A stretch of DNA of 64,000 nt from a virus, in the IMG/VR virus record IMGVR_UViG_3300024262_000018, positions 1 to 64,000 of that record, one strand, 5' to 3'. The translations under genes and the position numbers were made by a program. The first letter of the stretch is position 1; each line of letters starts with the position of its first letter. Positions 2,452 to 28,100 of this stretch are shown piece by piece. The notes below the pieces were generated by a model, which was not told the DNA's origin, ran no database searches, and worked only from the letters and a program-made list of their open reading frames with translations.

Positions 2452-3108
2452 TTACCCGCCAAGCAGATCATCTGTAATTAGGCTACCTTCATTATCGTTA
2501 GCTGAACCTCTCCCCAAAGATGTCGCAGAAAGGGCGAGAGGATTTCCATCTGACCACATATCCTCATCGGAATCCGATCCCTTTGTTTTTCCCTCTCTCT
2601 TCTGTTTTTCTACTTTAATTTTTTCTTGTTTCTTCATTTTTTCAGTATTTAAATAACCTTTAACAGATTGTATATCCTGTTGAGATAATATTTCGATTGT
2701 CCCGCTGTCTCTTAGTTTCTTCAGCGTAAGATTTTTATCGAGTACATTTTTCCCGAACTTAGCAAGAATATCATCTAACGGTTTAAAATCGTCTGGACCG
2801 TTAAAAGACAGATCTAGTGATTCTATTCTTATAACACCGCGCCCTGTAGATCTAATATATAGTGGCTCTTCATTTTCTATTGCAGATTGTAGACTATTTG
2901 TGTTTATCCCATTAACCATTTTAATAACATCTTTGCTATTAGTTCTAACTGCATTAGTTATATATAGTAGATCATTATCATCTCCAAGGACTTCTTTAAT
3001 TCTTTGTATTCCAGAAAACGGTATATTACTTACACCAGTTTCTGTATAAATTTCTACTACTCTACCCCTTACATTTAAAAATACTATTTTCATTTCAGTT
3101 TTCTCCAA
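2452..3108 (-). CDS. hypothetical protein
   Basis: 218-aa ORF overlapping the upstream glycosyltransferase. Confidence 0.7.
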   Translation of the reverse strand: MEKTEMKIVFLNVRGRVVEIYTETGVSNIPFSGIQRIKEVLGDDNDLLYITNAVRTNSKDVIKMVNGINTNSLQSAIENEEPLYIRSTGRGVIRIESLDLSFNGPDDFKPLDDILAKFGKNVLDKNLTLKKLRDSGTIEILSQQDIQSVKGYLNTEKMKKQEKIKVEKQKREGKTKGSDSDEDMWSDGNPLALSATSLGRGSANDNEGSLITDDLLGG

Positions 3109-4472
3109 ACTTGTTCCAGCCTAGCGTAAGCCATTTTAGAAACATTTTCTATACTATAATTTTCTTTTACATATTCCTGCAAGATTTTATTTCTATCATC
3201 TCTTTCTTCAAAAACTTTTCTCATAATTTTTTGAGCATCTGCGATGACTTTTTCAGAAGTCAATTCTGGAAATAGTTGCCCATCCCAGTAATGAACATCC
3301 ATTAATCCTTGTGGTAAAGGACTTACACTATCTATATCGATTAAATATGAATTATTATTTTTCAAAAACATCGTATGACCGCTGTGGTTAGTGCAAATAA
3401 CAGGTAAACCGCAAAGAGAAGCCTCACAGGCTGGAATGTTAAAACCCTCGCCTCTCGAAAAAAGTGCAAAGGCATTAGCCGACCTATACAGACTTGCCAT
3501 ATTATTTTCTGGAATTATATTTGAATATAAAGAGATATGAGGAGTATTCTCTGGTGCATATCTACTAATATAATCTTTAATAGTCTTTTTTATTCCTACA
3601 TTTTTATTAGTATTATAATTTACCCTTGTCGCCAGCAGCAAAGACACATCATCTTGACTATTAAACTCTCGCAGATAAGCTTTAAGTAGTACATCGTATC
3701 CTTTTCTATAACTCCACCCAAAAACGCTTAAAAATGTAAAATTACCGAGCGGAGGATTAAATTGGAATTTATCACCATTCGGTTGATAATCAGTAATATT
3801 AATCGAGTCTGGAATAACGAATATTGGTCTTTGTATATTATATTTATCCAATATTTCTTTACAAAAATCCGAGGCCACCCAAATCTCATTATAACTGTTG
3901 CAGATATCTACAAATTGTTGCGGGATAGAACTTGCTTCAATCGTCGTATATAAAATTCTATAAGCCCCACCTGACATATTACTAAAAGTGGGAATCATAC
4001 TATCAATAACAATTGCAGACCTACTTACTGTTTTATTTATTTTATTTAATGCTCGAATTTCATCTTCTTCAAGATTATTAAAAGACTTGTTTACGGGATC
4101 TAACTGGACTTTACATCCTAATTTATTTAAACCAAACGCCAAATTTCGATTAACTTTTGCATATCCACCCGCTTCGTACATATGTCCACATATTTTAACT
4201 TCTATTGCGTCATCTTTTTCTGGAAGTTTTTCTTCTTCTACTTTTTTTATAGGAACCTTATATTGATCTTGCATATTGGTTAAATTTTTTTCAAAAACGG
4301 TATCGTCATGTTCTACAATCTGGAATTTACCTAATTTAACTAATAGTCTAAAGTTATCCGATTTTTTTACTAAATCGGCATTGACAGTCTGGGGTTCATC
4401 TTCGATATAAGGAACAACTAAATCGATATCTCCAACGACAACAGTATTTTTAGTTGTATTTATAAATCTCAT
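3090..4472 (-). CDS. GT4-family (GT-B) glycosyltransferase with extra N-terminal module
   Basis: GGYAKVNR, FLSVFGWSYRKGYDVLLKAY, SRGEGFNIPACEASLCGLPVI (Ex7E motif). Confidence 0.9.
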   Translation of the reverse strand: MRFINTTKNTVVVGDIDLVVPYIEDEPQTVNADLVKKSDNFRLLVKLGKFQIVEHDDTVFEKNLTNMQDQYKVPIKKVEEEKLPEKDDAIEVKICGHMYEAGGYAKVNRNLAFGLNKLGCKVQLDPVNKSFNNLEEDEIRALNKINKTVSRSAIVIDSMIPTFSNMSGGAYRILYTTIEASSIPQQFVDICNSYNEIWVASDFCKEILDKYNIQRPIFVIPDSINITDYQPNGDKFQFNPPLGNFTFLSVFGWSYRKGYDVLLKAYLREFNSQDDVSLLLATRVNYNTNKNVGIKKTIKDYISRYAPENTPHISLYSNIIPENNMASLYRSANAFALFSRGEGFNIPACEASLCGLPVICTNHSGHTMFLKNNNSYLIDIDSVSPLPQGLMDVHYWDGQLFPELTSEKVIADAQKIMRKVFEERDDRNKILQEYVKENYSIENVSKMAYARLEQVWRKLK

Positions 4473-4478
4473 ATTATT

Positions 4479-4492
4479 ATTTTCGGCAAAAT
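4479..4492 (-). promoter_or_regulatory. ATTTTGCCGAAAAT motif (copy 1), putative -10 element
   Basis: near-identical copies at 9159-9172 and 13239-13252; 6 nt before the ATG at 4472. Confidence 0.6.
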
Positions 4493-4557
4493 TCTATTTT
4501 TTGTACAAAAAAAATACCCCTAAAAATCAGGAGTATTTTAATTTCGCGGTGAAATAT

Positions 4558-5346: not shown

Positions 5347-8247
5347 TTAATGCCAGAAATAACCTTGCAATAAAACAGATACGATATAGATATTGCCGTT
5401 GTAAGTATCGCCAGTTGGACCTGGAGATCCAGCGGCCTGCCTTCGCAAAGCTAATACTATAGTATCACCCAAAATAGCATCTGGAATACTGAATTGTATT
5501 GTCGATTCATACACTTGTTCGGCAGTATTAGCCGTCGTTGTTACTGAGTCAGATTTTTCTTGCTCCGTATTCGCCCCATTAAGAACTGTTCCAACTTTAA
5601 TGGTGCCATATGTTAGATCAAGAACGACATCTCCAGACGCGACATCAGTGGTAGGAGCCCACCTTGTTTTAAACTCTAATGGTAATGAAGTATCAAGACC
5701 TTCTGGAATAGCAACTGTTTGACCAAAGCCGTCTGTTGTTCCATTAGCAAATTCATTATCCGTAACAACAAAACGAGCCACAGCACCATATGATATGTTC
5801 TCGTTAGCAGGCGATGCTCCTACCAGTTCTTGTTTATTTCCGATATGGACCTCAGGAAGCTTGCGAAGTTTCCTGGCTTTTCCCATGTACTCAACAAAAC
5901 CGTCTGCATTTATTTCTGTTCTGTTACTGTGAACTTTAAACTGCTCAAAAATAGGAACTGTAGTTACATCAGTCTTTACTCTAAATCTTACCCAAAATCG
6001 GTTGGTTCCTGTAGCCGGAGGATCATTTTTAGCCCAATCAAATCTAGTAGTATCAGTAAGGTCATCAAATCTTATTTGTTCTGAATTAACCCTTTCGAAT
6101 ATAAGATTAGAATATTCGGTATACGGAGAATTAGATAGACAAGACATTGTAGCATATTCAACCCACGATCCTCCTCCGGCTGTTCCATCCCAATATTCTG
6201 CAACTATTTCTCCAGCTCCAAGGACCGCAGCTGTTGTAATAGAGGCTTTAATCCCTAAAAATTGTTTATAATCAGTAGCGTCTTGCAAATCAGATGATAC
6301 ATAAATGGCATTATCTGCTGCAATTGCCGGGAACGTAAATGTTGATCCAGACGAGCTTGCGGCTTCTGTGCTAACGTTCGTAAACACATTGCCAGCAGTT
6401 TCGGTATAAACCAGCATACCGCGAATGTAACTATCTCCTTCGCCAAAAACCGATTCGCGGCCTCGTTCTGGAGAACCGACTTGTAATTCTTCATATAATA
6501 GAAGCCCTTCGTCTCCCTCTAATTCACTATCAAAGGATAAGTTTGTCGCTGAAGAGTCTACCCTAGAAATTTTGGTAGCCAAAAACTTACAGAACGCTAA
6601 ATTAATAGTGGAGGAAGCATCCTCTTGTAATATATCCCATGTCGATGATGCTCCCAGAGCATTCTCCCTAGAACTAACGGTATTTCCTAGAACCTTACTA
6701 GTATTATTTACCCTAATAATATTAGTCGTTCCCATGCAAGATGTTAAATGCGGATAAATTGCGCCACCATTATTGGCATAGATTCCATTAGTTCCTCCCT
6801 GTGTGCCACTATTCTGAATCCAAATATTGCCGCCGTCAGCATAAAAATGAGTAGTAGTGGCCTTCGACAGAATGTTACTGCAACTTATAGATGCACCATC
6901 AGTAGCTCGGATGCCCGTGATTACATCTGGCTTAAACTTCGATTCCTCAATTGTAAGCTTTGTCCCAGCCCCATCGGCATGTATACCTGACAAAGAATTT
7001 GTGCAAACAACACGAACAATTTCACCCTCATTTCCGCTATTCAGCAAAATAGCATCATTGTTAGCCGGACCACTTGTTCTTAGACTGTAAACTTGCGAGT
7101 CATCAGACATTGTCAATAAAACTGAAGCGTTATCATTAGCTTGAATGACAGAAGCCTCATCATTATACCCTTGTACCGTTACATAAGATGGGACAACTAG
7201 CGGATTATTTTCCACATATGTTCCAGGAGTTACTTCGATAACATATCTGTTGGTAGTACTCGCCTCGTCCGGACCTCCAGCATAACTGTTAATTTCGTCT
7301 ATAGCCTCTTCAACTGAGGCAAAAGTCGTGCCAGCAGAACCTGTTACTTGTGTTACGATTAAAACATTAAGATTAGCTTCTCCACCGACCTCAACGGCGG
7401 CGATGAGATTATTAACTTGATCTTTAGTATAAAAATCATAATTTTTCGGACTCACAAAAATAGAACCTTCTGTTGCCGAAGAGACGACTATTCTACCTAC
7501 TTTGTAAATAAATGAGTTCGGTTCGTCATCAGTAAGGGCTCCGGCAGTTGCAGCAGAAACCCATACATCTGCCCCAGCAGCAAAAGCTGAGGTATCTAGA
7601 TCATTAACAATTCCTAATGCGGTTATAAAGCCAGAAGTTCCATCTGCGATATGTTGTGTCGTCAACCCGGCAACAATATAAGTAGTTTCTGACGAAGCTT
7701 GGGCCAAAGCAACCGTTGGAAGCCCCGTGACAACATCTGCTCCGCTGATATAGACAGCCTGACCATCAACGAGATCAGATCCAGTGTCATTATAAACATA
7801 AACCCATTGTTCTTGCCCCACCTGCAAGGCTATGTCTGACTCGCTGTTATATACCGCTAAACATTTATTTACGGTGTCATAAAAAATCAGACCTTCTTCG
7901 TAGTCTGGATTAGCTGCTAAATCTGGATTTAATTTAAGAAAATCAAATGTTGTCTCGTCTTTTATTTCTTCTATAATACTTCTTTCTGCAACCGTAACAT
8001 AATCTGAACTTTCCACGTCTGTAGAACTATTATCTAAAATCTTTTGCATCGAGATAAAACCAGCAGTTAGAGCCATAGGAATCTGTTTACATTGTTGAAT
8101 TTCGTCTTTTTCGTAATATATTAGCAGGTCTACAGATTCACCAGATGAAATTGTTGGAAGTAGGGGTAATTCACCGAAGGCTAGTTCAGATAGGCTTATA
8201 TTAGTGAGTACCCATCGCTCTCTATTATTTTCGTTATTTATAGTCAT
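5347..8247 (-). CDS. multi-domain virion fibre/appendage protein (cement-like domain plus pectin-lyase-like beta-helix)
   Basis: VYNDTGSDLVDGQAVYISG...GLTTQHIADG...GIVNDLDTSAF module; TFASVEEAID...IEVTPGTYVE beta-helix cap; probable start MTINNEN. Confidence 0.7.
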   Translation of the reverse strand: MTINNENNRERWVLTNISLSELAFGELPLLPTISSGESVDLLIYYEKDEIQQCKQIPMALTAGFISMQKILDNSSTDVESSDYVTVAERSIIEEIKDETTFDFLKLNPDLAANPDYEEGLIFYDTVNKCLAVYNSESDIALQVGQEQWVYVYNDTGSDLVDGQAVYISGADVVTGLPTVALAQASSETTYIVAGLTTQHIADGTSGFITALGIVNDLDTSAFAAGADVWVSAATAGALTDDEPNSFIYKVGRIVVSSATEGSIFVSPKNYDFYTKDQVNNLIAAVEVGGEANLNVLIVTQVTGSAGTTFASVEEAIDEINSYAGGPDEASTTNRYVIEVTPGTYVENNPLVVPSYVTVQGYNDEASVIQANDNASVLLTMSDDSQVYSLRTSGPANNDAILLNSGNEGEIVRVVCTNSLSGIHADGAGTKLTIEESKFKPDVITGIRATDGASISCSNILSKATTTHFYADGGNIWIQNSGTQGGTNGIYANNGGAIYPHLTSCMGTTNIIRVNNTSKVLGNTVSSRENALGASSTWDILQEDASSTINLAFCKFLATKISRVDSSATNLSFDSELEGDEGLLLYEELQVGSPERGRESVFGEGDSYIRGMLVYTETAGNVFTNVSTEAASSSGSTFTFPAIAADNAIYVSSDLQDATDYKQFLGIKASITTAAVLGAGEIVAEYWDGTAGGGSWVEYATMSCLSNSPYTEYSNLIFERVNSEQIRFDDLTDTTRFDWAKNDPPATGTNRFWVRFRVKTDVTTVPIFEQFKVHSNRTEINADGFVEYMGKARKLRKLPEVHIGNKQELVGASPANENISYGAVARFVVTDNEFANGTTDGFGQTVAIPEGLDTSLPLEFKTRWAPTTDVASGDVVLDLTYGTIKVGTVLNGANTEQEKSDSVTTTANTAEQVYESTIQFSIPDAILGDTIVLALRRQAAGSPGPTGDTYNGNIYIVSVLLQGYFWH

Positions 8248-8321
8248 ATTTTTCTTTTTTCGTACAAAAAGCAACGGATTCCTATTATGTTGCGATTATA
8301 TTCTGTTTTTCCTTTAAAAAA

Positions 8322-9152
8322 TTATATATCAAGTAATAAAGTTTCTCTATTCATCGCCCGGAAAACAAGTTCTTCTTGAGAAATTTTTATAGTTAAATCT
8401 TCTTCGATATTACTAGTAAAAGCATAGCTTTCTGGTAGTAGTATTTTTCTTATATCATATTCGTTATTCTTCCTAAAAACCATAGTGAAATTGGGAATAG
8501 ACGCGATAATGCTTATCGAATTAGAAAAAGAAGGATTATGATAGAAACAGTCAGGCGTGTCAGTCGCTAAAGTCGCTGAACACCAGGGAGTGTCATATAT
8601 CTGAATAAAAGGTTTTCCAGAAAATACAGAAATATTAGCGTGTCTTAAAGCCAAAACCTCTGTTTTTTGTAATTTATTAGTTTTAAAAACTTTAGCAGGA
8701 TATTTTTTAATATTATCTTTTGGAAAAAAATCAGAAGTAATATAACAATCATCTTCTTCGCTAAATTGATAAGATGTATCTTCTGGACAAAGAGATTTGA
8801 TAAAAGAAAGAAAATTTTCATTTTCTTTTTTAATTAACTTATCTATAAGTCCCGTAATTATCGTTATTATATTTACTTTGTTCATCTCTAATTCCACTTT
8901 TGAAATCGAATAAGAGATGCAATTAGAAGAGGTTTCAATAGGTTTACTTGTTTCGAGAAAAATAGTATCGTTTTTATCACAGTCGAAGTAATAAACATCT
9001 TGCTGAGGGATGGGTGCTAGATAAAACTTATTTTTATCGATAATATCAACAGGGCAGATTTTGCGACACAATGATTGCGAATGTAGACTTTGACAGAAAG
9101 ATTTGCTCGCAACCTCAGAAATCCCCTCTATGTCTTTTAATTCGTTAATCAT
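8322..9152 (-). CDS. highly diverged paralog of the major capsid protein
   Basis: SLHSQSLCRKICPVD vs MCP SLEYQAVGRKLLMVD; IKKENENFL vs IQKEEDSNIF; SQEELVFRAMN vs IYEEVGIVVVN; similar length (276 vs 289 aa). Confidence 0.6.
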   Translation of the reverse strand: MINELKDIEGISEVASKSFCQSLHSQSLCRKICPVDIIDKNKFYLAPIPQQDVYYFDCDKNDTIFLETSKPIETSSNCISYSISKVELEMNKVNIITIITGLIDKLIKKENENFLSFIKSLCPEDTSYQFSEEDDCYITSDFFPKDNIKKYPAKVFKTNKLQKTEVLALRHANISVFSGKPFIQIYDTPWCSATLATDTPDCFYHNPSFSNSISIIASIPNFTMVFRKNNEYDIRKILLPESYAFTSNIEEDLTIKISQEELVFRAMNRETLLLDI

Positions 9153-9158
9153 ATTTAC

Positions 9159-9172
9159 ATTATCGGCAAAAT
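9159..9172 (-). promoter_or_regulatory. ATTTTGCCGATAAT motif (copy 2)
   Basis: 6 nt before the ATG at 9152, no SD. Confidence 0.6.
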
Positions 9173-9175
9173 GTA

Positions 9176-9644
9176 TTAATTTTTAACGGCTAAAACTATT
9201 TGATATGAGATAGCAACCGGCGGCCATTCCAATATTATTCCAGAGTTCTTCATTGTCTCTGTTAAATTGACGCCCTGAGCCTCGGGACAGCCAATAATTT
9301 TATAATCCCTATGTTGCCTCAAAAAAGACTTAATCTCGCTTCTCAAGGCTAATCTAGCTTCTCAAGGCTAATCTAGCAGTACCCTGCCAGTAAAGAACAC
9401 ATCGAACTTGTCGTTCTGACCAGTCTTTGTGTTTTAATCTCATTTTGTCAGTATGAGCTTTAAAATCAAATATATTATATATTGCGAAAACAGAGGAATA
9501 ATTGCTTTTAAAATGAGGAGCTTGAGGAGGGCAACCTTTCTTGACCCCGAAATTCGGGCAACCTTTTTTATGAAGAGGATATGGTTTAACACATAACCCC
9601 CTCATTTTTGAATCAATTACAGGTTTAACTTCAATCCACGGCAT
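9176..9644 (-). pseudogene. DUF2284-like metal-binding protein frameshifted by a 19-bp tandem duplication
   Basis: GCPNFG...GCPP N-terminal half; removing one repeat copy restores ...RSEIKSFLRQHRDYKIIGCPEAQGVNLTETM...WPP...KN*. Confidence 0.7.
9338..9375. repeat. exact 19-bp tandem duplication GCTTCTCAAGGCTAATCTA x2
   Basis: directly visible. Confidence 0.95.
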
Positions 9645-10164
9645 CTAATAATAACTCCTTAACTGCGTCTTTCCAGTACTCTAATGATGTGAAATTAAAT
9701 CCAATAGGATTTTCTTCTACTAATTTAATTAAACACTTATAGAATGCCAAACTGACGTTTTCTAGCCCCAATGTTTTTAAACTTATTAAAATTCTTGTTA
9801 TTCGTAGAAAATTATGATTTTTACCTGTCTGCCAATTTCCTTTTCTTTCCTCATAATTCTCACCTTTATAAATAAGAATATTAGAATTGTTTAAATCACA
9901 AGACAAACCATAAAAGTCTAACATAATTAAAAACGAAATCAATAAATTATGTCGAAGGCTTTTATTATTTTTAAATTGACTAATATCAGAAATTAATAAT
10001 TTAGGGGTAGATCTATTAAAATAGGAAGGTTCAATAATAGGAAATAGATATTGTATATAATCATGCGTATGCTCAAGCTCTTTATAGCTATATTTCCATA
10101 TATCTTCTATCGATCTTCCAGTATGATCGGGTTTTTCACTATAAAAATCGACTATTGCTGACAT
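9631..10164 (-). CDS. opioid growth factor receptor (OGFr) conserved-domain protein
   Basis: LEHTHDYIQYLFP, MLDFYG, NHNFLRITRILISL. Confidence 0.85.
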   Translation of the reverse strand: MSAIVDFYSEKPDHTGRSIEDIWKYSYKELEHTHDYIQYLFPIIEPSYFNRSTPKLLISDISQFKNNKSLRHNLLISFLIMLDFYGLSCDLNNSNILIYKGENYEERKGNWQTGKNHNFLRITRILISLKTLGLENVSLAFYKCLIKLVEENPIGFNFTSLEYWKDAVKELLLDAVD

Positions 10165-10198
10165 ATTATTTTCCCTTGTATTAATAATAGTGTACATA

Positions 10199-10230
10199 CA
10201 AAAAGGTTCACTTTTTAGGGCAAACCTTTT
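10199..10230. terminator. probable intrinsic terminator
   Basis: AAAAGGTT...AACCTTTT stem in an intergenic gap. Confidence 0.5.
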
Positions 10231-10242
10231 CGTATGTTTATA

Positions 10243-10932
10243 TTATTTTCTAATAACGTCTATAACATCTTTGCTATTAGAGTCTTGTGCTTTCTTTAAC
10301 TCGTTGTTAATAGCATCTTTTGCATCAGGATTCGCGGCTTTAAAAGCGTCAACGCCTTGTACCGTTTGAACCAATGCGGTTTCTGTTTTCTTAGTTTTAA
10401 CCCAAGTGATTAAACCGGATATCGCAGATATACCTCCTGTCGCAATTGCCGCCATAATCCCAGCGATTACTCCTGCTGGAGGCCAAACAATTGAAACAGC
10501 AGACAATATAAGCCAAATAGCAAAATAAAGAACAATAAACCAGAATATGGATTTAACAAAGTTCCATAATCCAGTTATCCAACTTTGTCCTTTAGATTTT
10601 CCAATTGATATATTGTCATTTTGAATACCTTGATCACCGGCAGCAGCTTCTGGACCACCTAAACCAAACCAACTAAAAGCTCTAAAATAAATTTTCTCGG
10701 AAGTAGCCCCCCTCCATTCTTTTTCTTCTACAACGGTTTGTAACTCGTTTTCCTCAATTGTGATCTCTGAACCCTCGGGCATTGAATTAATTCGGCTAAT
10801 TAGGTCTGAAGAGGTCTGTGACGAGGTTTGAGATTGAGTGATGTTAGATTTAATCTGTCCAACCGAATAGCCAAGAATCGAGCTGCCTAATCCTACGACA
10901 ATACAAAGAAATATTACACTTAATTTATTCAT
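10243..10932 (-). CDS. membrane protein (N-terminal anchor plus 2 TM segments)
   Basis: hydrophobic segments LSVIFLCIVVGLG, IFWFIVLYFAIWLILSAVSIVW, VIAGIMAAIATGGISAISGLI. Confidence 0.7.
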   Translation of the reverse strand: MNKLSVIFLCIVVGLGSSILGYSVGQIKSNITQSQTSSQTSSDLISRINSMPEGSEITIEENELQTVVEEKEWRGATSEKIYFRAFSWFGLGGPEAAAGDQGIQNDNISIGKSKGQSWITGLWNFVKSIFWFIVLYFAIWLILSAVSIVWPPAGVIAGIMAAIATGGISAISGLITWVKTKKTETALVQTVQGVDAFKAANPDAKDAINNELKKAQDSNSKDVIDVIRK

Positions 10933-11183
10933 TATTTATACTCCTTTGATATAACTGTTTTGCCATTTATTTTTTTAATAGTTATTATTCTGGTTTTAAT
11001 AGGAGCAGTCGTTTCTTTATAAGAATGAGTTATTCCGTCAGGTCCACCTATCTGATTCTTTATGATCGCATGAGAACAGCCAATACTGGACAATCCAATC
11101 ATTAAAAGAAAACCATACGTCAATATTCTTTTCATTATATTTCCCATATTTCTCTCCATTTTTAACAGATAGAGCTCAATCAC
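10932..11183 (-). CDS. small putative lipoprotein
   Basis: MKRILTYGFLLMIGLSSIGC lipobox-like; true start probably internal. Confidence 0.55.
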   Translation of the reverse strand: MIELYLLKMERNMGNIMKRILTYGFLLMIGLSSIGCSHAIIKNQIGGPDGITHSYKETTAPIKTRIITIKKINGKTVISKEYK

Positions 11184-11293
11184 TAATCACTTTTTCAACA
11201 AGATGTTTTGAGTTCCTCTTTTTTTTTCTAGTACATCAAAATAAGATTCAAGAGACAAGTCCCTTGAATCATTATTTTGAACTATATTTTAAT

Positions 11294-11821
11294 TTAAGCT
11301 ATTTTAATGCGAACAACGGCTTCGTAACTAATTCTTCCGCCCCAGAAAATAGCTGCCGTTAAAGTGATAACATCATCAGCAAAAACATAAGCTCTAGTAT
11401 CGCCCTTAGAAAGATGCTCGTCAAGACGGGCAAGAGTAAATGGCTCCGTATAGACTTCACCTTCTGTTAAAGTAGGCATTCTCCCGCCAAACGCATACAA
11501 AATATTTCCAAGGCCATTCTTATCTGGAAGCAAGCCAGTTGTGTGATTGGTGTCACGCGTTGGCGCAGGAGCGTAAGTTCTTAATCTTACTGGAACATTA
11601 TTCTCGTCAAAATAGCCAGGTCCAGAACCGGTCAGAGTAATTCTGACTCTCTTCTGAAAAACATATACATCATCATTGTAAACATCGATGGGTGTTCCGC
11701 TTTGAGTCGCTTGATTTCTTACTGTTCCTACAAATGATGGAACCCACGTACCGTCTGTTTTTCTCAAGTCACCAGCAAGCTGGATAGCGGGAGCCCTAAT
11801 TGGTCTAATAGCTTGGGTCAT
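11294..11821 (-). CDS. hypothetical (probable virion) protein
   Basis: 175 aa, SD AGGAG, followed by hairpin at about 11245-11270. Confidence 0.7.
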   Translation of the reverse strand: MTQAIRPIRAPAIQLAGDLRKTDGTWVPSFVGTVRNQATQSGTPIDVYNDDVYVFQKRVRITLTGSGPGYFDENNVPVRLRTYAPAPTRDTNHTTGLLPDKNGLGNILYAFGGRMPTLTEGEVYTEPFTLARLDEHLSKGDTRAYVFADDVITLTAAIFWGGRISYEAVVRIKIA

Positions 11822-11923
11822 ATTTTTATCTCCTAAAATTATACGAATCGGTATCTATGTATTATATAGAACAAATAAAATACCTTTAAGTATTTTGAAA
11901 ATTATTTATTTTTTGACAACAAG

Positions 11924-12430
11924 CTATCTGCGAGAGCCCGGATGAACAGCTCTGCCAGAAGTATCACTCCGAGGTCTTGTTGGAATATTACTATGCGAAG
12001 GAGACATACTGTTAGGTCTCATCGGAGATACTTTAGGAGACATACCAGGTCTAGATGGCATATTACCATGAGGAACTATTGGAGTCAATCTAGGCGATGG
12101 AGTCAATCTAGGCGATGGAGTCAATCTAGGCGATGGAGTCAATCTAGGCGATGGCATAACTCTATGAGGCATTACCGGTGCTGTTCTATATGGTATCGTT
12201 CTAGACTGCATATGAGGATTCATAGGATTGGGTCTATAGATCGTAATAGGAGGACGATGGACAGTTATCGGAGGACGATGCATTGTGCGAACTGGAGGAC
12301 TATATCTAGGATATACTATTGTTGGATGACTGGTATACCGCATATTCGTTCGCCCACGTTCATCACAGCCATACAACACAGAACTTGCCAATCCAAGAGT
12401 CAAAATCGCGATACAAAGTATTTTGTTCAT
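11924..12430 (-). CDS. Pro/Arg-rich exported protein with SPRLTP repeats
   Basis: signal-like N-terminus ending VLYGC; low-complexity body. Confidence 0.6.
   Translation of the reverse strand: MNKILCIAILTLGLASSVLYGCDERGRTNMRYTSHPTIVYPRYSPPVRTMHRPPITVHRPPITIYRPNPMNPHMQSRTIPYRTAPVMPHRVMPSPRLTPSPRLTPSPRLTPSPRLTPIVPHGNMPSRPGMSPKVSPMRPNSMSPSHSNIPTRPRSDTSGRAVHPGSRR
12080..12151. repeat. 18-bp in-frame tandem repeat x4 (TGGAGTCAATCTAGGCGA)
   Basis: directly visible, no spacers. Confidence 0.95.
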
Positions 12431-12516
12431 AATTTTCCCTTTCTATTAACTATATGAATAGACACTTATCTAACTATAACAACGCGAACAAAATTAAAAA
12501 TCTACAAGGAAAAATA

Positions 12517-12672
12517 TTATTTTTTCCACTCTTCTCCTTCCTGTTCGGCTAGTTTTGCTTCTATTATCTCTTCTTTTAATCTTTTTATCTCTTTCTTTGT
12601 TTCTACTATCTTTACATTAATCTCAGCGATTTGCTTCAATAATAGTTTTTTGCGCCAAGGAAGTGTCTTCAT
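12517..12672 (-). CDS. small coiled-coil hypothetical protein (51 aa, below track cutoff)
   Basis: MKTLPWRKKLLLKQIAEINVKIVETKKEIKRLKEEIIEAKLAEQEGEEWKK*. Confidence 0.55.
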   Translation of the reverse strand: MKTLPWRKKLLLKQIAEINVKIVETKKEIKRLKEEIIEAKLAEQEGEEWKK

Positions 12673-12685
12673 AAATAAAGCAATT

Positions 12686-12907
12686 TTATCCATTTTTTAT
12701 TTCCCTTTTTAAATTATATTCTTGTTTTGGTATAGCACAACCACATCCACAAGTTCCTGGCGAGCCACACCTATGATACCATGTGTTTTCTAATTCATAT
12801 TCCCAACAATAATGAATACCAAATGGATGCTTTTGCCAAGAACTACTCATATTGTTAAAAGCTGTTCCGCACTTGGAGCAAACGTGATTATCTATATTTT
12901 TATTCAT
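12686..12907 (-). CDS. small Cys-rich hypothetical protein
   Basis: CSKC...HRC...CGCGC. Confidence 0.55.
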   Translation of the reverse strand: MNKNIDNHVCSKCGTAFNNMSSSWQKHPFGIHYCWEYELENTWYHRCGSPGTCGCGCAIPKQEYNLKREIKNG

Positions 12908-13211
12908 CTGTTACGGGCCCAGACGATTGTGCGGCAATGGGATTGCCACCAAGACCTTGATATGGAGCATAATAGATCGGCACCATTTCTGTGGTTATAG
13001 CATGATGTGTAATAAGAATAGGAGACCGTCCTGTTTTTTCAGAGTCTTTAAGAGCCTCTCCTAAACATCTAGCAACGTCTTTAAGATCTTCTGGTTTAGC
13101 CGGACGAATATTATCTCCTACTTTTATCAAAGTAAGCATGCAATTTTCAGAACTTTTCCAAGGAATAGATACCGATGTTTCACTACCTGATACAACAATT
13201 TTAATTTCCAT
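12900..13211 (-). CDS. stand-alone protein homologous to the clip segment of the portal
   Basis: LIKVGDNIRPAKPEDLKDV...ILITHHAI vs portal VIKIGDKERPATAADIMDV...TLVTHHAF; SD AAGGAG. Confidence 0.75.
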   Translation of the reverse strand: MEIKIVVSGSETSVSIPWKSSENCMLTLIKVGDNIRPAKPEDLKDVARCLGEALKDSEKTGRSPILITHHAITTEMVPIYYAPYQGLGGNPIAAQSSGPVTDE

Positions 13212-13238
13212 TTTGTTCTCCTTAAAAGTATTACATAT

Positions 13239-13252
13239 ATTATCGGCAAAAT
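13239..13252 (-). promoter_or_regulatory. ATTTTGCCGATAAT motif (copy 3)
   Basis: identical to copy 2; upstream of SD and ATG at 13211. Confidence 0.6.
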
Positions 13253-14409
13253 TATTTTTTCAAAATAAAGATCGGTTCAGTATGGTAATTTACTTGTCCC
13301 TTTTTCCTATGGAATTCATTATTCGCTAATTTCATTTGATATGTTTTTTCCAATACAAAACCAATTTTTTGCGAATATGAGAGAAAATCATCAGCAATTG
13401 AAAACTTATCGTAGTTTTTTATGTTTATGGCTAAATAAGATCCAGCCTTTAAAACCCTATAACTCTCATCTACAATTTTATACAAAAATCCATCCAGCCA
13501 GTCTTGATAAATAGGGAATTTTACAGAACTTTGATTTTTATCTTTAGAATACTCTTCTACATCAAAATAAGGAGGAGACGTAAAAACTAAATCATAATAA
13601 TCACTCCGTAACAAGGGCATTACCTCCTCTGCACATCCAAGATGGAATCCTGTTCTAAAGGAGTAATCATTCTTAAAAAATGAAGCACACTCTATGTTCC
13701 CTTTTATTGTTCTTTCATCTGGGTCTATACCTGTATAATTAATATTTTTATTAGCAGATATGACTCCACACAATCTTCCAGAGAATCCAGCACAAGGATC
13801 TATTATATTCCCGTTCAATGGGATATAAGTATCATAAATAAATTTTGCTATTACTGGTTTAAAATTACAAACAGTTCTAACTCCATTCCGAGTTTTTAAA
13901 ATCTTCCTCATCCCAACGTTACTAGGAACAATGTCTAAATCTAATGCTCTTTTTATACAATCTCTAAACTTCTTATCATCCAAAAAAGCTGTTATAGGAC
14001 TGAAACGACTACGATTTCCGTGTCCAACTTCTAACATGTGATTGTGAAACGAACTCGCTAATGATGTGCCAGAATAATTCGACTGTAAAAGATTATTATC
14101 TAAAAGCGGAGAAGATGAACGAGAAAGAGATAACATTTTTTTATTCTTTTCTTCATCAGACGGTTTATAATAGGGAAATCCAGCGTCTCTATAATGCTTA
14201 AAAATAATATCAATAATAGAATTCCGATATTCTTCGTTTTCGTGGTACGCTTTTAAAAGTTTTTTAAAATCATTTTTGTCATTTATATAGGATAAAGCGG
14301 CATCTCTAATAAAATTACTCTTGCTTTTCCCGAATAAAGCAGATTTTATTTTAATTGTCCTGTGATCTTCTTCACTTATCCGAAGAAGTATGTTGCTTGA
14401 TTTTTCCAT
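13252..14409 (-). CDS. amino-DNA methyltransferase (m6A/m4C) with N-terminal RHH-like domain
   Basis: IDPCAGFSGR (SAM-binding motif I), FTSPPYF (motif IV); ILLRISEEDHRTIKIKSALFGKSKSNFIRDA at N-terminus. Confidence 0.85.
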   Translation of the reverse strand: MEKSSNILLRISEEDHRTIKIKSALFGKSKSNFIRDAALSYINDKNDFKKLLKAYHENEEYRNSIIDIIFKHYRDAGFPYYKPSDEEKNKKMLSLSRSSSPLLDNNLLQSNYSGTSLASSFHNHMLEVGHGNRSRFSPITAFLDDKKFRDCIKRALDLDIVPSNVGMRKILKTRNGVRTVCNFKPVIAKFIYDTYIPLNGNIIDPCAGFSGRLCGVISANKNINYTGIDPDERTIKGNIECASFFKNDYSFRTGFHLGCAEEVMPLLRSDYYDLVFTSPPYFDVEEYSKDKNQSSVKFPIYQDWLDGFLYKIVDESYRVLKAGSYLAINIKNYDKFSIADDFLSYSQKIGFVLEKTYQMKLANNEFHRKKGQVNYHTEPIFILKK

Positions 14410-14410
14410 A

Positions 14411-15337
14411 TTATTTCTCCCAATTAATTTCGTCTTTAAATCGCCTTTTAAACATATCATATTCTTTTTTGCCAACAATTGTTATTTTAACTCCAAATTT
14501 CTTCACAACTTCTTTCATTATCGCTCTATTTTTAACACATGTCTTACACGGGCAAATCCACTCACTAGAAGATCTTGCATGCCCCTTTATCTCATAATAT
14601 CTATTTTTATCTGCAAAATAAAAATCTGGACAATACGAAAAACTGTCATTTCCTAGTTTAATATAAAAACGTTTTGTTTCATATCTATACTGCCTATTAA
14701 ATTTTTGATATATCCTCGCCATGTTCGCTTCCCAAGTACTTCTTACATAATGCCCAATATCAACTCTTATCCCTCCCTTGCCCCTTCCAGAGCCTTTAGG
14801 AGAAGGTTTTCCGTACATAGGGTTTCCTTTACCTCTAAAACTTCTTCTATTTTTATAGCCTTTTGCACGAGCTTTTTTACAATCATCCGTATCAAATTTT
14901 CCATCCTTCCATGCTTGCTTAACTGCTAAAGATACATTTTTATTATGATCTGCTGTTTTTTGGATCTTCTTCATTTCTCTAGATATTTTTCTGCGTCGGA
15001 TATCTTCCATGTTATCAATTTTTAATTTATTTTTAAACATATCAAGAACGTATCCATTGCTAATCGCGGCAAAAATATTTTTAGCATTATATAATTTTTT
15101 AAAGAATTCAAAGACATTCCCTTTATGATCAAGATAAATTTTAAGTGCCTGTTTTATATTTTTTTTCAAAAAAGATTGATGTTTAATGTCTTTGCTTTTC
15201 TTTATGTGAACAAATATTTTCCAATATTTATCATATTTTTTGTTGCAAATTGGACACTCTTCGAAAAGAGCATATTCGGTTTTCATGTCTCTAAATTTTT
15301 TATTTCTTTTTGCGTTAGTCTCTTTTTTGCAAGGCAT
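14411..15337 (-). CDS. homing-type endonuclease: zinc finger, NUMOD3, PD-(D/E)xK domain
   Basis: CPIC...H; GKGNPMYGK (NUMOD3); RSTWEAN...YCPDF...YEIKG. Confidence 0.8.
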   Translation of the reverse strand: MPCKKETNAKRNKKFRDMKTEYALFEECPICNKKYDKYWKIFVHIKKSKDIKHQSFLKKNIKQALKIYLDHKGNVFEFFKKLYNAKNIFAAISNGYVLDMFKNKLKIDNMEDIRRRKISREMKKIQKTADHNKNVSLAVKQAWKDGKFDTDDCKKARAKGYKNRRSFRGKGNPMYGKPSPKGSGRGKGGIRVDIGHYVRSTWEANMARIYQKFNRQYRYETKRFYIKLGNDSFSYCPDFYFADKNRYYEIKGHARSSSEWICPCKTCVKNRAIMKEVVKKFGVKITIVGKKEYDMFKRRFKDEINWEK

Positions 15338-15492: not shown

Positions 15493-16362
15493 TTAGGTAG
15501 CAGAACTTACATCAATTCTTGAGACGGCATAGTCGTTAACGACTACTATACCCACTTCCTCATAAATTACCCAACCCAAGCGGAGCTTCTTTGGATCGTC
15601 AGCAGGCAATACTGTTATATCTTGACGAATCGGAAAAGCGCCAACTGTATCAGGCGAAGCAACTACTAGAACTGTTGCAACTGGCATACGGCTTGAAACG
15701 TGAATATCAGCGGTGTAGAGGTGACCATAAAGGCCAGTTGTGATAATTTCACGCTGAGTTGCCTCATCATAGAAAGTCTTGCCGAAGGCACGGACGCTAG
15801 CGAACTGGCGAGCATGCATAACAATCTTCGTAGCAACAAGGTCATGCTCTTCGATCATGCGGAAAGCAGTGTTCAAAGAAGCGATTGACAAGGTTCCGAA
15901 GTTAGAAACGATGTTACCAGCAGTCGTTGCAGCAGCTAGAAGGGCATTGAAGATATTGCTATCTTCTTCCTTCTGGATAGCTTCCTTAGCCTTGATCTGA
16001 GCTCGGTCTACGATGTAGAAACGACGAGCCTTGATCTCGCTAAGACGAACTGTTGGATGAGCAGCAATTTCGAACGTAGGAACTAGGATTTCCTCGCCTT
16101 CCTGAATTTGATCAGGTACGGCACCTCTACGAGAAACTACGTGAGCAACTGAGGCAACGTCACGCTCGTAACGAGCAAGAGCACCTTGGGGAAGCTCATC
16201 AACCATCAAAAGCTTACGACCGACAGCCTGATACTCTAACGAACGGCGAATTGGTTCTACCATTGCCTGAGCTAGAGCAGTACGTCCCTCGTCTGTTTCC
16301 AGAGCTTGGGCAATAACATCTTCCTTCTCTCTATCTGTTAAACTATTTTTACTTAAAGACAT
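15493..16362 (-). CDS. major capsid protein (HK97 fold)
   Basis: LAQAMVEPIRRSLEYQAVGRKLL, PTFEIAAHP, KLRLGWVIYEEVG; follows protease/scaffold and decoration genes; biased codon usage; strong terminator. Confidence 0.9.
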   Translation of the reverse strand: MSLSKNSLTDREKEDVIAQALETDEGRTALAQAMVEPIRRSLEYQAVGRKLLMVDELPQGALARYERDVASVAHVVSRRGAVPDQIQEGEEILVPTFEIAAHPTVRLSEIKARRFYIVDRAQIKAKEAIQKEEDSNIFNALLAAATTAGNIVSNFGTLSIASLNTAFRMIEEHDLVATKIVMHARQFASVRAFGKTFYDEATQREIITTGLYGHLYTADIHVSSRMPVATVLVVASPDTVGAFPIRQDITVLPADDPKKLRLGWVIYEEVGIVVVNDYAVSRIDVSSAT

Positions 16363-24669: not shown

Positions 24670-25131
24670 CTAAGCTTTGATGCGTCTTGGAATCTTTTTA
24701 TTTGCTAAATCGGCAAGAGTCATATTAGTCTGGTGAGGAGGAAACTGCACCCCCCACATCTGGCTTGCATGCCTCAAAGCAGATAGCAAACTTGGAAAAT
24801 ACTTTCCACTTGGAGCATAAACTTTTTTACGTTCGTGTTTAGGAGGTAATTTTTTAATTCCAGCAAAGAATGCTACTTCTCCATATTTTTTCTTGGCCGG
24901 TCCAACAACTACAAAATAATCAGAATTTGTAGTGTAATCGTGCCCCTCCCATCTTCGATAAGCTCCCTCTCCTATATCTTTGTCAAATCTTTTTTTAAGG
25001 GGAAGAGATTTTTCTGAGTAATGTTCTTTCCACCTTATACCCCTATCTCTAATTCTTTTTCTTTTATTAGTAGATAAGTATGTGGCGTATTTACATAGAT
25101 TATAAAAAGATCTTATCATTTTATTGCCCAA
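24670..25131 (-). CDS. hypothetical basic protein
   Basis: overlaps the portal stop. Confidence 0.7.
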   Translation of the reverse strand: MGNKMIRSFYNLCKYATYLSTNKRKRIRDRGIRWKEHYSEKSLPLKKRFDKDIGEGAYRRWEGHDYTTNSDYFVVVGPAKKKYGEVAFFAGIKKLPPKHERKKVYAPSGKYFPSLLSALRHASQMWGVQFPPHQTNMTLADLANKKIPRRIKA

Positions 25132-28100
25132 TTAGATATAAACAACCTAAGTCGTCCTCTAATACTATTTTATTATAAACTATATTATCCTTTGACAAAT
25201 TCTCAAATGTTAATATATTCGCTATTTTTTCTAATGGGTCTCCAGAAGATTTTTTATTGAATCTCTTTTTCTGATCGGCAGAAGCAGCAGCGATTTGTTG
25301 GTCTATAATACTTTTAATGGCATCGGGTTGCTGCTGGATCGCGTCTTCTTTGAATCTTAAAATTCTCCAACCAATATTAGCTAATTTCTGATCCCTCTGG
25401 TTATCTCTTATCTTAGAATCTACGTTCTCATGCCAGGCTTTTCCATCCGCCTCAATCCCGACTCCAAGAGCAGGGTAAGCAAAGTCCATAACGAATGGCT
25501 GGTTCTCTCCTGTCGGCTGTACTGCATACTGTAAATATAGTTGCTGGGAAATATCTACTCCCTGTATTATTTTATATAATTTTTGCTCTAAAGTCGTTAA
25601 CTTGATAAAGCGAGGAGCAGCAGGCTTCATCTGTTCATCTAATTTCTTGCCACCATGTCCCTTTTTTCCTACTTTAAAGTTAGAAGGGAGAGCTCCTGCA
25701 CTCGGACCCATACCACCGGCTGCACCTGGAGCCATTGGAGCCCCGCCAGCACCTCCCGGCATCCCGCCCTCCATACCTCCTGGCATGCCGCCCGGCATAC
25801 CGCCCGGCATACCGCCCATATCAGCCCCACCAAGACCTTCTGGCATCGGAGGAGCGCCACCGAGACCGCCCAGATCTCCCATGCCACCCATACCCGGCAT
25901 ACCGCCGCCACCTGGCATTTGCCCTTGCGGTCCTGCGACAACTTGCTCTTCTCGCAATCTTTCGACTTCTTGATCATAATCAACATCAAATTCTTGCAAT
26001 AGTTTTTGGCTACTAATCAGTTGCTTATCATGTAGCTGCATCATCAGTTGTAAGTGCCCACTTTTGTCTCTAAGATTCAAATCTTCCCATTTCAGTTTGG
26101 GATATAGAAACTCTGTTTCGCCTAACTCTTCTGAATCTTTCTCATTAATGAATCCCTGCATCATAGCAACAGGAAGGAAAATGTGATTTTCAACCCATTC
26201 TGCTAAAGTGGTTCGCCAACTCTCTAATCTCCGAATCATCGTTTCAACGCCGACTTGGGCAGAAGAATAACTATTTCCCTGTATTGTTATTTTACCATTT
26301 CTCTTTGTTACGAAAAGCCCATGTGGAACTTCGAAACAATAAACCTTGCCAGAATAATCTATTTGTGAGATTTCATCTAAAGTTAAATTTATCATTTCAA
26401 TATTCTGACAATTGCCATCAAAACCATTTGTAATTCCAAGTATCTTCGCTCGTCTTCTAACATCTTGAGCATCTACAAATCTAAAACCATCGTGTTCCCG
26501 AGGCTGTATCCACATTCTATGGTTAGGAGTAGTTAAAATATCAATTTTATCAGTTTTAAATTTTATCATTTTTCCAGAATAGTCATATACGTTTTTATTG
26601 ATAAAATTATGATATTCTAACATTTTTGTTTCAGGATTATAACAAGCGATTTTATCATTTTCATCTATGTCAAAATGATTTTTAAAACCATCATCTGTTA
26701 GCGTCAGTGTTTCTTCGTCATGACAGCTCATTTCTCCGTTCAATAAAGCTTGATTAAGCATCAATCCATCAAGAATTTCTTTGCCGATTTGTTCAAGTTC
26801 GGCAGTAATGTTGTGTATTTTGCCGGTGTTGCCCTGTATCGCAACTCTTCCGTTTCTCATTGTAACGAAGAAGCCAGTAGAAGTTGTATAGCACCAAACC
26901 TTGCCTTTATAATATTTAGATTTAATATGTTCCTGTTTAATACGAGGGAACCTCCCCTTCCCGGTATTAGTTAAATTACAATTTACAACAAATTGTTTAT
27001 CTTTTTTGTAAGGACTTAATACAGGAGAATAACCAGCCTTAAACATTATTTCTACAAGATCGTTAGCTAAATGCTCAGAATCGGTCCCGCACTGAACAGC
27101 CTCTGTCGTTTTATAAAAATATCTACTTGCATCTCCATTGCAATAAGAATCTATAAATATTTTTAATTTTTCTGGAGGCAAATTTTTAATAAATTGAGGT
27201 ATTTTTTTATTATTAGAATTTGTTCCAAACCATTCCTTAAGAACCTTTACCACTTCTTTTATTAAAATGTCCCAAGTTGTTACTCTTCCCTCATAAGCAT
27301 ATTTATGATATTTAATCCCCAATTTTCCCATAATTTGATCTATTTCATCACAAATGTCAGCATTTTTTTCAGGACATTGAGAAAATGAAAGCCTATACGC
27401 TCTTTTATCTTTATCAAATATAGAATATCCTTCTGCAACATAATATCCAGCAAATTTAAGAAATGGTTCTATATCTACATCGTGTCCCGCAATATGAACA
27501 GACTCTATATCTTGATCAGAAATATAATCTGCTACGCATCGAACATAACTGTCTCCATGACCCGCAATCTTAGCAAACTTACGAGCTTCCATTGTATAAG
27601 CTGTTTTTTTGTCACGCTTATATCCTAACATTTTGTGATTAGGAGTTACGCACATATCTATTTTATTACCCTTAAACTCTACCATATAATTATCGAAATC
27701 ATATACATGCAAAGCCTCAGGTTCCTCATATCTCATTTCATTAGAGTCTGGATCAAAGACCATAATTTCGTCATTTTCTTCTATATCCCAGTAATTTTTC
27801 CATCCTCCAGATTTACATAAAGCCTTAGTATCACTGGAGTTACAGGCCCCGTACCATTCATAGTCAAAAGCGTGGTGGGTAACTAGGGTCAAGTTTGGAT
27901 CATTTGCAACAGCAGTGATTTGGTTAGAGACATCCATAATATCTGCTGCTGTAGCTGGACGCTCTTTATCTCCGATTTTAATAACTCTAACTGGCAGAAT
28001 AAGTCTTTCAGCGACGATCCAGTTAGCTGTCATTAATTTTGTTTTATATGCTAATATAGTGAATAATCTTCTAAGTAGAGACGTTCCATAGATCCCATAT

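Follow-up and report, generated by a model that had tools for sequence, protein, structure and literature searches.

A putative sigma-28-type promoter box ahead of a predicted capsid-fold protein and a portal-clip-like mini-protein in a relative of Bacillus phage G

Phages can encode alternative sigma factors of their own, for example gp28 and gp33/34 of Bacillus phage SPO1 and gp55 of T4. T4 also carries gp24, a vertex paralog of the capsid protein gp23 that is recognisably similar to it in sequence, lies in the head module and is conserved in its group, and the satellite SaPIbov5 encodes Ccm, which redirects capsid size against the helper. The -10 consensus of sigma-28 (FliA/SigD) promoters is GCCGATAA, occupying positions -15 to -8 in fliC (PMC12784957), and the clip of the phage portal is the docking site for the large terminase and later for adaptor proteins (PMC10359639). 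A jumbo-phage review states that no sigma factors occur in group 3, to which phage G belongs (PMC7824862). Here we describe a locus in the first 64 kb (the window) of the 113,959-bp IMG/VR virus contig IMGVR_UViG_3300024262_000018 (G000; CheckV completeness 26%), where two open reading frames (ORFs), P0001 (8322..9152(-), 276 aa) and P0002 (12900..13211(-), 103 aa), stand behind copies of one 14-bp motif. A first-pass annotation had read them as a degenerate capsid copy and a copy of a portal segment, forming a dedicated regulon of structural decoys. Our analysis points instead to a promoter class of wide use, an accessory protein with a capsid-like fold and a member of a family of small clip-like proteins.

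Judged from its genes, the source of the contig is an uncultured jumbo phage and kin of Bacillus phage G. Its authentic major capsid protein (MCP; 15493..16362(-), 289 aa; phrog_2522, E 8e-66) is 55% identical to gp27 of phage G. Comparisons were made with more than 80 related environmental contigs, whose MCPs are 69-98% identical and several of which are complete genomes of 460-548 kb; the closest relative is L004 (MCP 98%, methyltransferase 90% identical).

The 14-mer ATTTTGCCGATAAT is present in the window as two exact copies, 9159..9172(-) and 13239..13252(-), which end 6 nt and 27 nt ahead of the ATGs of P0001 (at 9152) and P0002, respectively, so the sequence identity first noticed at the two ORFs is real. 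By itself such identity is weak evidence, since 138 different 14-mers recur in the window against ~31 expected from composition. Both copies contain the octamer GCCGATAA (9160..9167 and 13240..13247), an exact match to the sigma-28 -10 consensus. At the P0001 site 7 nt separate this box from the ATG, and a -35-like TAAAAATT lies at 9178..9185 with a spacer of 10 nt. The second copy overlaps the stop codon of the upstream methyltransferase gene and leaves a leader of ~20 nt with a Shine-Dalgarno sequence (start predicted ~8 nt past the box); the 15-mer TGCCGATAATATATG at this site is also found directly downstream of the MCP gene in relative L012. A third copy with one mismatch, ATTTTGCCGAAAAT (4479..4492(-); box GCCGAAAA at 4480..4487), directly follows a terminator hairpin (4511..4539) and ends 6 nt before the ATG of a GT4 glycosyltransferase gene (3090..4472(-)). 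The motif is therefore not private to P0001 and P0002.

The box recurs throughout the phage group. When 7-mers were counted without bias in 634 noncoding segments upstream of genes in the phage family, GTCGATA (enriched 12.5x) and GCCGATA (9.5x) ranked right after the Shine-Dalgarno words. Within the contig, four of the seven TGCCGAWAA sites lie <=70 nt upstream of co-oriented starts, a placement that covers 4.4% of strand-positions by expectation (P 1.2e-4). The family consensus from 38 distinct sites is TTTT-G[CT]CGATA[AT], T-rich at -4..-1, with (T)AA(G)G at -20..-16 as a weak TAAAG-like signal near -35, and 13 of these sites end 6-7 nt ahead of an ATG. A near-perfect TAAAGTTT-N12-GCCGATAA stands at G000:100434 ahead of a gene for a 250-aa helix-turn-helix (HTH) protein, and weaker versions of the box (TTCGATAA, ATCGATAA) precede structural-region genes in the window. 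Glycosyltransferase orthologs (~450-470 aa) in at least 12 related loci share the order terminator hairpin, box, 6/7 nt, ATG (e.g. L058:10811, L066:11502, L067:11560). The glycosyltransferase gene of the window itself, downstream of the MCP gene, has the layout terminator hairpin, TTTTGC-GCCGATAA box, 6-7 nt, ATG (4479..4539).

The first-pass annotation had also noted that the motif is not seen ahead of the true head genes. That the box is foreign to head genes is not supported, as in relatives it precedes the portal gene (L035) and a ~180-aa head gene upstream of the MCP gene (L073 and L012). The box is kept before the P0001 orthologs in L084 and L085, at equal distance to the start codon and with differing flanks, but it is not exclusive to look-alike genes. 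From its sequence and placement, we take the shared motif to be the -10 element of a sigma-28 (FliA/SigD/WhiG)-type promoter, sometimes accompanied by TAAAG at -35, and the box to be a general promoter class of the phage group that serves many genes, the glycosyltransferase and HTH regulator genes among them. This use for many genes makes co-expression of P0001 and P0002 plausible and leaves a decoy-specific, two-gene regulon unsupported.

A candidate factor for these promoters is encoded outside the window, at G000 76801..77607(+). This 268-aa sigma-70-family protein has FliA/WhiG families as all of its top NCBIfam matches (TIGR02479, 169.8 bits), and homologs were found in all five complete relatives tested (L090-L094). 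When the phage sigma factor was used as a tblastn query, phage G was not among the 15 matches listed of 41. The presence of a FliA/WhiG-like sigma factor in phage-G-like genomes qualifies the published statement that group 3 has none. With the box at -15..-8 and its end 6-7 nt before the ATG, the +1 position falls on the A of the ATG and a leaderless transcript is predicted; leaderless mRNAs are accordingly predicted for P0001 and for the glycosyltransferase gene, the layout of the latter being conserved across the group.

Other readings of the motif were less fitting. A sigma-70 consensus scan of the region found no enrichment (57 sites against 50.3 expected), and a Bacteroidetes-type TAnnTTTG reading was rejected on inspection by eye because it misfits the orthologous sites. 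Upstream of the P0001 promoter, a stretch of ~27 nt, ATATCAAATAGTTTTAGC[C/T]GTTAAAA (9190..9215(-)), is shared with L085:14-40. In L085, ~350 bp with a 90-aa ORF on the opposite strand lie between this stretch and the box, and the segment looks, at the level of sequence, as if it had been inserted to separate the -35 region from the -10 box.

P0001 bears no recognisable sequence link to the MCP of its own phage. The by-eye alignment that had suggested a capsid copy did not hold: BLASTP gave E 0.8, two profile-profile runs of the P0001 family against the MCP family with hhalign gave a probability of 0.5-0.6%, and Pfam, PHROG and NCBIfam held no match for P0001. The sole aligned stretch, between the P0001 C-terminus and MCP residues 41-55, had E 0.1 and was not relied on. 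The capsid fold, on the other hand, was recovered by structure prediction. An AlphaFold2 (AF2) model from a six-sequence alignment (predicted local distance difference test (pLDDT) 68.4, predicted template modelling score (pTM) 0.66) comprises H5-26, E52-57/E62-66, E76-84 and H95-120 followed by a beta-rich A/P region, and so displays the elements by which we recognised the HK97 fold, namely an N-terminal arm or helix, an E-loop hairpin, a P-domain strand, a long spine helix and an A-domain sheet. Foldseek against PDB returned 121 matches at E<=1e-3, and the ~40 chains listed were all HK97-type capsid or encapsulin proteins. The best match in BFVD was Gp27 of Bacillus phage G (E 3.3e-8), with the next ones within ~2-fold. 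VIA-align gave Z 11-13 at a root-mean-square deviation (rmsd) of 3.3-4.0 over 180-201 residues, and an exhaustive alignment to 48,161 representative chains placed HK97-fold proteins in all top 50 positions (Z 8.6-12.4). The solved gp27 of phage G (6wkk) ranked 37th there (Z 9.2, against 12.4 for an encapsulin); as gp27 scores below the encapsulins, descent of P0001 from its own MCP is possible, not shown. The ESM Atlas held nothing for P0001 or P0002. Checked by profile and structure, the proposed kinship with head proteins thus stands for the fold of P0001 and, as described below, for the P0002 family against the portal profile, but not for P0001 against the MCP profile.

The description of P0001 as degenerate was likewise not borne out. 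Against its orthologs in L084 and L085 the ratio of nonsynonymous to synonymous substitution rates (dN/dS) is 0.27-0.29 (~0.28 overall; dS ~0.9), the in-frame codon-usage score of 0.39 is like that of real genes, and synteny with a large neighbour is conserved. This neighbour, a 975-aa gene just downstream (5347..8274(-)), shows a weak beta-helix signal of pectate-lyase-like type (PF12708, E 2e-4, under the curated cut-off), and in all three known contexts, including L084 and L085, the P0001 homolog lies directly upstream of such a large gene (867-975 aa, weak beta-helix signal). Searches of 1.8-5.8 billion proteins yielded three close and two distant homologs, among which P0001 is conserved down to 26% identity. 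Relatives were found neither in IMG/VR contigs, GTDB genomes and the five complete relatives nor in 80 related MCP loci, and for its absence from the complete relatives and the MCP loci we regard P0001 as accessory. Based on the model, P0001 is a full-length, divergent HK97-fold (capsid/encapsulin-like) protein under purifying selection.

P0002, in contrast to P0001, can be connected to its authentic counterpart by sequence, and the claim that it copies a portal segment was confirmed at the level of homology. BLASTP aligned it to portal aa 668-722 (27857..28021(-)) with 35% identity over 60 aa (E 1e-6). A hidden Markov model (HMM) of the portal region built from 14 other phages found P0002 at E 3.3e-5 among 1,592 six-frame ORF pieces, the next match being at 1.2, and a clip-only HMM found it at E 1.1e-5 among 21,769 pieces as the sole non-portal match. 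The similarity is confined to portal HMM positions 276-330. Across P0002 and nine portals 13 columns are invariant (W, E, G, RPA, D, D, T, THHA), and the core of P0002 reads IKVGDNIRPA...LITHHAI. P0002 is no portal itself: it has 103 aa without wing, stem or crown, whereas portals have ~400 aa or more. Nor does it mimic the portal faithfully: where portals have the invariant loop VANDPNLT, it has a different and longer stretch. The gene has an AAGGAG Shine-Dalgarno sequence ahead of its ATG and the highest codon-usage score of the region (0.53, phage-like). The appearance of P0002 as an orphan in single-sequence searches was a sensitivity artefact overturned by the profile searches, and an origin by recent duplication of the portal segment of this phage, or at the intein site, was rejected, there being no DNA-level identity and an about equal distance to all portals. 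These profile matches identify P0002 as a real homolog of the portal clip region.

With the clip profile, short ORFs that stand alone were also detected in complete relatives. A second profile, made from four of these mini-proteins, retrieved at least 247 clusters (90% identity), a lower bound for the size of the family, which we call A7; its members have 75-150 aa, no Pfam domain and no informative name. An alignment of 44 members, with P0002 excluded, gave as consensus a Lys-rich tail followed by DLEGKFLLVKVG-x4-PAT-x2-QIKD...NNINCLAFVTHHAV-x-MEIIEK. The core motif, KVG-x4-PA-...-VTHHA(V/I) near the C-terminus, is shared by P0002, which falls within the family (hhalign probability 97%, E 1e-10; found by the A7 profile at E 1.3e-8). 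A7 aligned with the portal family by hhalign at 97.8% probability (E 8.5e-13; portal profile positions 288-332), and its profile matched the portal clip in six of six genomes searched. The VANDPNLT loop is not kept anywhere in the family, which has NNINCLAF in its place. Free-standing copies were present in three of five complete relatives, with two each in G001 and G005. One 150-aa clip-like paralog in G001 (L095:3002-3454(-)) has an N-terminal Cys-x2-Cys ... Cys-x3-Cys zinc-ribbon-like segment where others have the Lys-rich tail.

The canonical context of A7, seen in eight large phage contigs (L098:3691-5436, L099-L105), consists of a ~100-aa gene, the clip-like gene and a ~140-aa gene with an EYWY motif, continuing with a PhoH-like ATPase in four of the eight and then with a 600-1000-aa gene in most. 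The cluster genes scanned, the PhoH-like ATPase apart, had no Pfam match, and the 100-aa and 140-aa genes had none in PHROG either. These neighbours were not found in the 114-kb contig, which is the sequenced quarter of the genome. P0002 lies outside the canonical context and is therefore described as a divergent A7 member or paralog in a new place. The free-standing clip family was not found in Pfam or PHROGs, and tblastn queries with P0002 and a second member matched no such family in GenBank phage records. On these profile comparisons, A7 is a widespread, unnamed family of small proteins made of a portal-clip-like module.

The account that we favour, and hold to be reasonably probable, combines a sigma-28-type promoter class, an accessory role for P0001 and a clip-interaction role for P0002. 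The phage sigma factor would direct host RNA polymerase to the boxes. Initiation at P0001 and at the glycosyltransferase gene would fall on the A of the ATG and yield mRNAs without a leader; the P0002 transcript would begin with a short leader carrying the Shine-Dalgarno sequence. Both ORFs would thereby be expressed with a broad promoter class, head genes included in relatives, and not as a private regulon. P0001 may be a low-copy accessory shell-fold protein working with the adjacent 975-aa beta-helix-like protein, for instance as a specialised capsomer or a capsid-associated anchor, and such a structural or assembly-linked role is favoured because of its full-length fold, its purifying selection and its fixed pairing with the fibre-like gene. 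For P0002 we propose a soluble module with the clip fold, which would make contact with a clip-scaffold partner.

Several observations weigh against this account. A canonical -35 element is missing at the sites of P0002 and the glycosyltransferase gene, a weak sigma-70 promoter (TTAAAA-16-GATAAT) is another possible reading of the P0001 site, and the sigma factor scores below the NCBIfam curated cut-off for FliA_WhiG (169.8 vs 189.6 bits). The HK97 fold of P0001 rests on the six-sequence model, for which two of five models were above pLDDT 60, and an earlier four-sequence model was unusable (pLDDT 34.6). The absence of P0001 from the five complete relatives and its position outside the head module fit an accessory or conflict role equally with a structural one. 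The label 'clip' is inferred from the place of the segment in the conserved portal core and from general portal domain order; a search by sequence found no solved portal homolog for mapping the clip. Finally, the occurrence of two head-protein look-alikes in one 5-kb island is a coincidence that the account leaves unexplained.

An alternative, which we consider unlikely, is that the two proteins modulate head assembly and packaging. The P0002 family would then engage a clip partner (the large terminase, the head-completion adaptor or portal subunits), timing or limiting packaging or poisoning that of a co-infecting phage, and P0001 would co-assemble with or cap capsid lattices as Ccm does. SaPIbov5 Ccm, an HK97-fold size-redirecting protein, is indeed among the structural matches of P0001 (7rwz, Z 8.8), the family keeps the portal-clip core residues VG, PA and VTHHA, its Lys-rich N-terminal tails suggest nucleic-acid contact, and the clip is where the large terminase and then the adaptors dock (PMC10359639). 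However, the family does not keep VANDPNLT, the most conserved exposed stretch of the portal, so that the docking surface likely differs, and canonical family members are not adjacent to terminase or portal genes.

Anti-defence, one of the purposes proposed in the first-pass annotation, appears quite improbable. It would have P0001 and P0002 act as soluble, non-assembling look-alikes that bind or soak up CapRel-, Avs4- or Lit-type sensors without activating them. CapRel-SJ46 reportedly senses the capsid protein (Zhang et al. 2022) and Avs4 is reported to sense the portal protein (Gao et al. 2022), both of which speak for this reading. It would account for two hallmark look-alikes in one accessory island, and hypervariable accessory islands are where counter-defence genes often sit; both proteins copy the fold and not the sequence of hallmark head proteins, the two genes have a promoter type in common, and the patchy distribution of the clip-like family (three of five complete genomes, sometimes two copies) is typical of conflict genes. 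Yet binding of a look-alike should activate a sensor and not block it, and the clip loop is altered. The contexts are machine-like, P0001 being tied to the large beta-helix-like gene and the canonical clip-like genes to a tight cluster with the PhoH-like ATPase, and the promoter is not specific to the pair. PADLOC gave methyltransferase matches and one weak LeoBC match, with no other defence or anti-defence family match. We know of no precedent for such capsid or portal decoys, and literature keyword searches touching decoys, Avs4 or clip mimics returned none. The wider proposition that phage-G-like jumbo phages make soluble fold-mimics of head proteins, whether as defence decoys and sponges or as dominant-negative inhibitors of head assembly and packaging in rival phages, seems to us to have a similarly low probability.

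Both ORFs border on or belong to a hypervariable accessory island of 10 ORFs (9176..13211(-)), which is relatively AT-rich and whose ORFs, the clip match excepted, had no homolog in 80 related loci. At the island junction the closest relative, L004, instead carries a gene for an MerR-HTH and DUF7487 repeat protein (3414-4142(+)), which from its domains looks like a mobile-element-type gene; this replacement marks the junction after the methyltransferase gene as an insertion hot spot. No further portal or MCP fragments were found in the island in any frame, and an origin of the island as a decayed foreign head module (portal ... MCP order) was rejected on this ground and for the lack of protease or scaffold family matches. 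That P0001 and P0002 are evolutionary by-products without dedicated function, the former a relic of a foreign head module or encapsulin-like gene and the latter a stray recombination fragment at the intein-rich portal gene, is very unlikely: the island is unique to this contig and AT-rich, a mobile-element-type gene sits at its junction in the closest relative and the P0002 similarity stops 4 aa before the intein-2 insertion site, but purifying selection acts on P0001, whose few homologs show conservation down to 26% identity, the family of P0002 is conserved over at least 247 clusters and has invariant residues, P0002 has a strong Shine-Dalgarno sequence and phage-like codon usage, there is no DNA-level trace of its recent copying and no other portal or MCP debris in the island, and the intein is lacking at this site in most relatives that carry clip-like genes.

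Two small ORFs of 73 aa (Cys-rich) and 58 aa (12517..12907(-)) overlap P0002 and each other at stop/start, and the three are for this reason probably co-transcribed and translationally coupled; downstream, the closest terminator-like hairpin lies at 11245..11270(-). The island also encodes a 188-aa protein with an OGFr_N domain (9631..10197(-), PF04664, E 2.5e-28). Directly upstream of P0002 is the DNA methyltransferase gene (13252..14478(-)), conserved in 18 related loci. The N-terminus of the methyltransferase has a ribbon-helix-helix-like segment (NikA-like/DUF6290, score below cut-off).

The portal gene (25121..30022(-), 1633 aa; phrog_16240, E 5e-34) contains three inteins and a C-terminal DUF559/Vsr-like domain, as indicated by Pfam intein and DUF559 matches. 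Intein 1, with a LAGLIDADG domain, covers aa 86-468 (28619..29767(-)), intein 2 aa 727-1065 (26828..27844(-)) and a mini-intein at site 3 aa 1100-1250 (26273..26725(-)); the P0002-like segment ends 4 aa before the intein-2 site, and sites 2 and 3 flank the helix following the clip. Most relatives have no portal intein; L061 (site 2) and L023 (site 3) have one each. Intein-free orthologs have ~745-765 aa and match PF06074 Portal_Mu, the Portal_Mu/SPP1 core match spanning residues 248-431 in L035. The DUF559/Vsr-like endonuclease-fold domain (~25290..25531(-), portal aa ~1498-1576) follows a Gly/Met/Pro-rich linker and weakly matches PDB 3r3p and 3hrl. It is present in nine of nine intein-free portals (L035, L015, L054, L052, L051, L045, L056, L055, L037); such a conserved fusion of a portal to a nuclease fold is unusual.

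The phage-G-like group appears, from the distribution of the box, to rely on a sigma-28-like factor of its own for much of its gene expression, with a recurrent leaderless layout, and box and layout together offer a practical rule for promoter annotation in this poorly studied group. A soluble clip-fold family in giant phages gives a handle on packaging control or on the way host defences sense portals, because the clip receives first the packaging motor and then the neck proteins. P0001 suggests that hallmark folds are reused in the accessory islands of giant phages, where they are invisible to sequence searches for capsid families, and its pairing with the large beta-helix-like gene provides a testable partner. 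Were the decoy reading true, it would define a new class of counter-defence.

Set beside the clip of Mu/SPP1-type portals, P0002 and its family share the core VG..(R)PA...D/Q(I/L)...VTHHA, but they are without wing, stem and crown, have VANDPNLT replaced and carry an added Lys-rich or variable N-terminal tail. Among capsid-like shells, family 1 encapsulins and the Pyrococcus furiosus virus-like particle are the best matches of P0001 (Z 12-13 over ~195-200 residues, N-terminal helix included); they are of similar length and, likewise, have no scaffold or delta domain. P0001 differs from them in having no encapsulin sequence-family match and no evident cargo gene with a targeting peptide, and in being phage-encoded beside a fibre-like gene; in Z, phage capsid proteins trail the encapsulins by less than 2.

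SaPIbov5 Ccm is comparable to P0001 as a capsid-fold protein, other than the main shell protein, that acts on assembly; P0001, however, is the phage's own gene product, and features of a satellite were not observed. T4 gp24 provides the parallel of a large myovirus-type genome with a second HK97-fold gene in addition to the main capsid gene (1yue vs the P0001 model, Z 9.7), whereas P0001 has no sequence link to the MCP, belongs to an accessory island and is missing in the five complete relatives. As for bacterial sigma-28 promoters, many of the phage sites differ from them in having no -35 element and abutting a terminator hairpin, one site in three has an ATG 6-7 nt downstream, and the phage sigma factor falls below the curated FliA_WhiG cut-off. 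The likeness lies in GCCGATAA itself, which equals the published -10 consensus, in the TAAAG(T/G)TT at -35 with an 11-13 nt spacer at some phage sites, in a phage-borne sigma factor nearest to FliA/WhiG, and in the enrichment of the box upstream of genes across the group.

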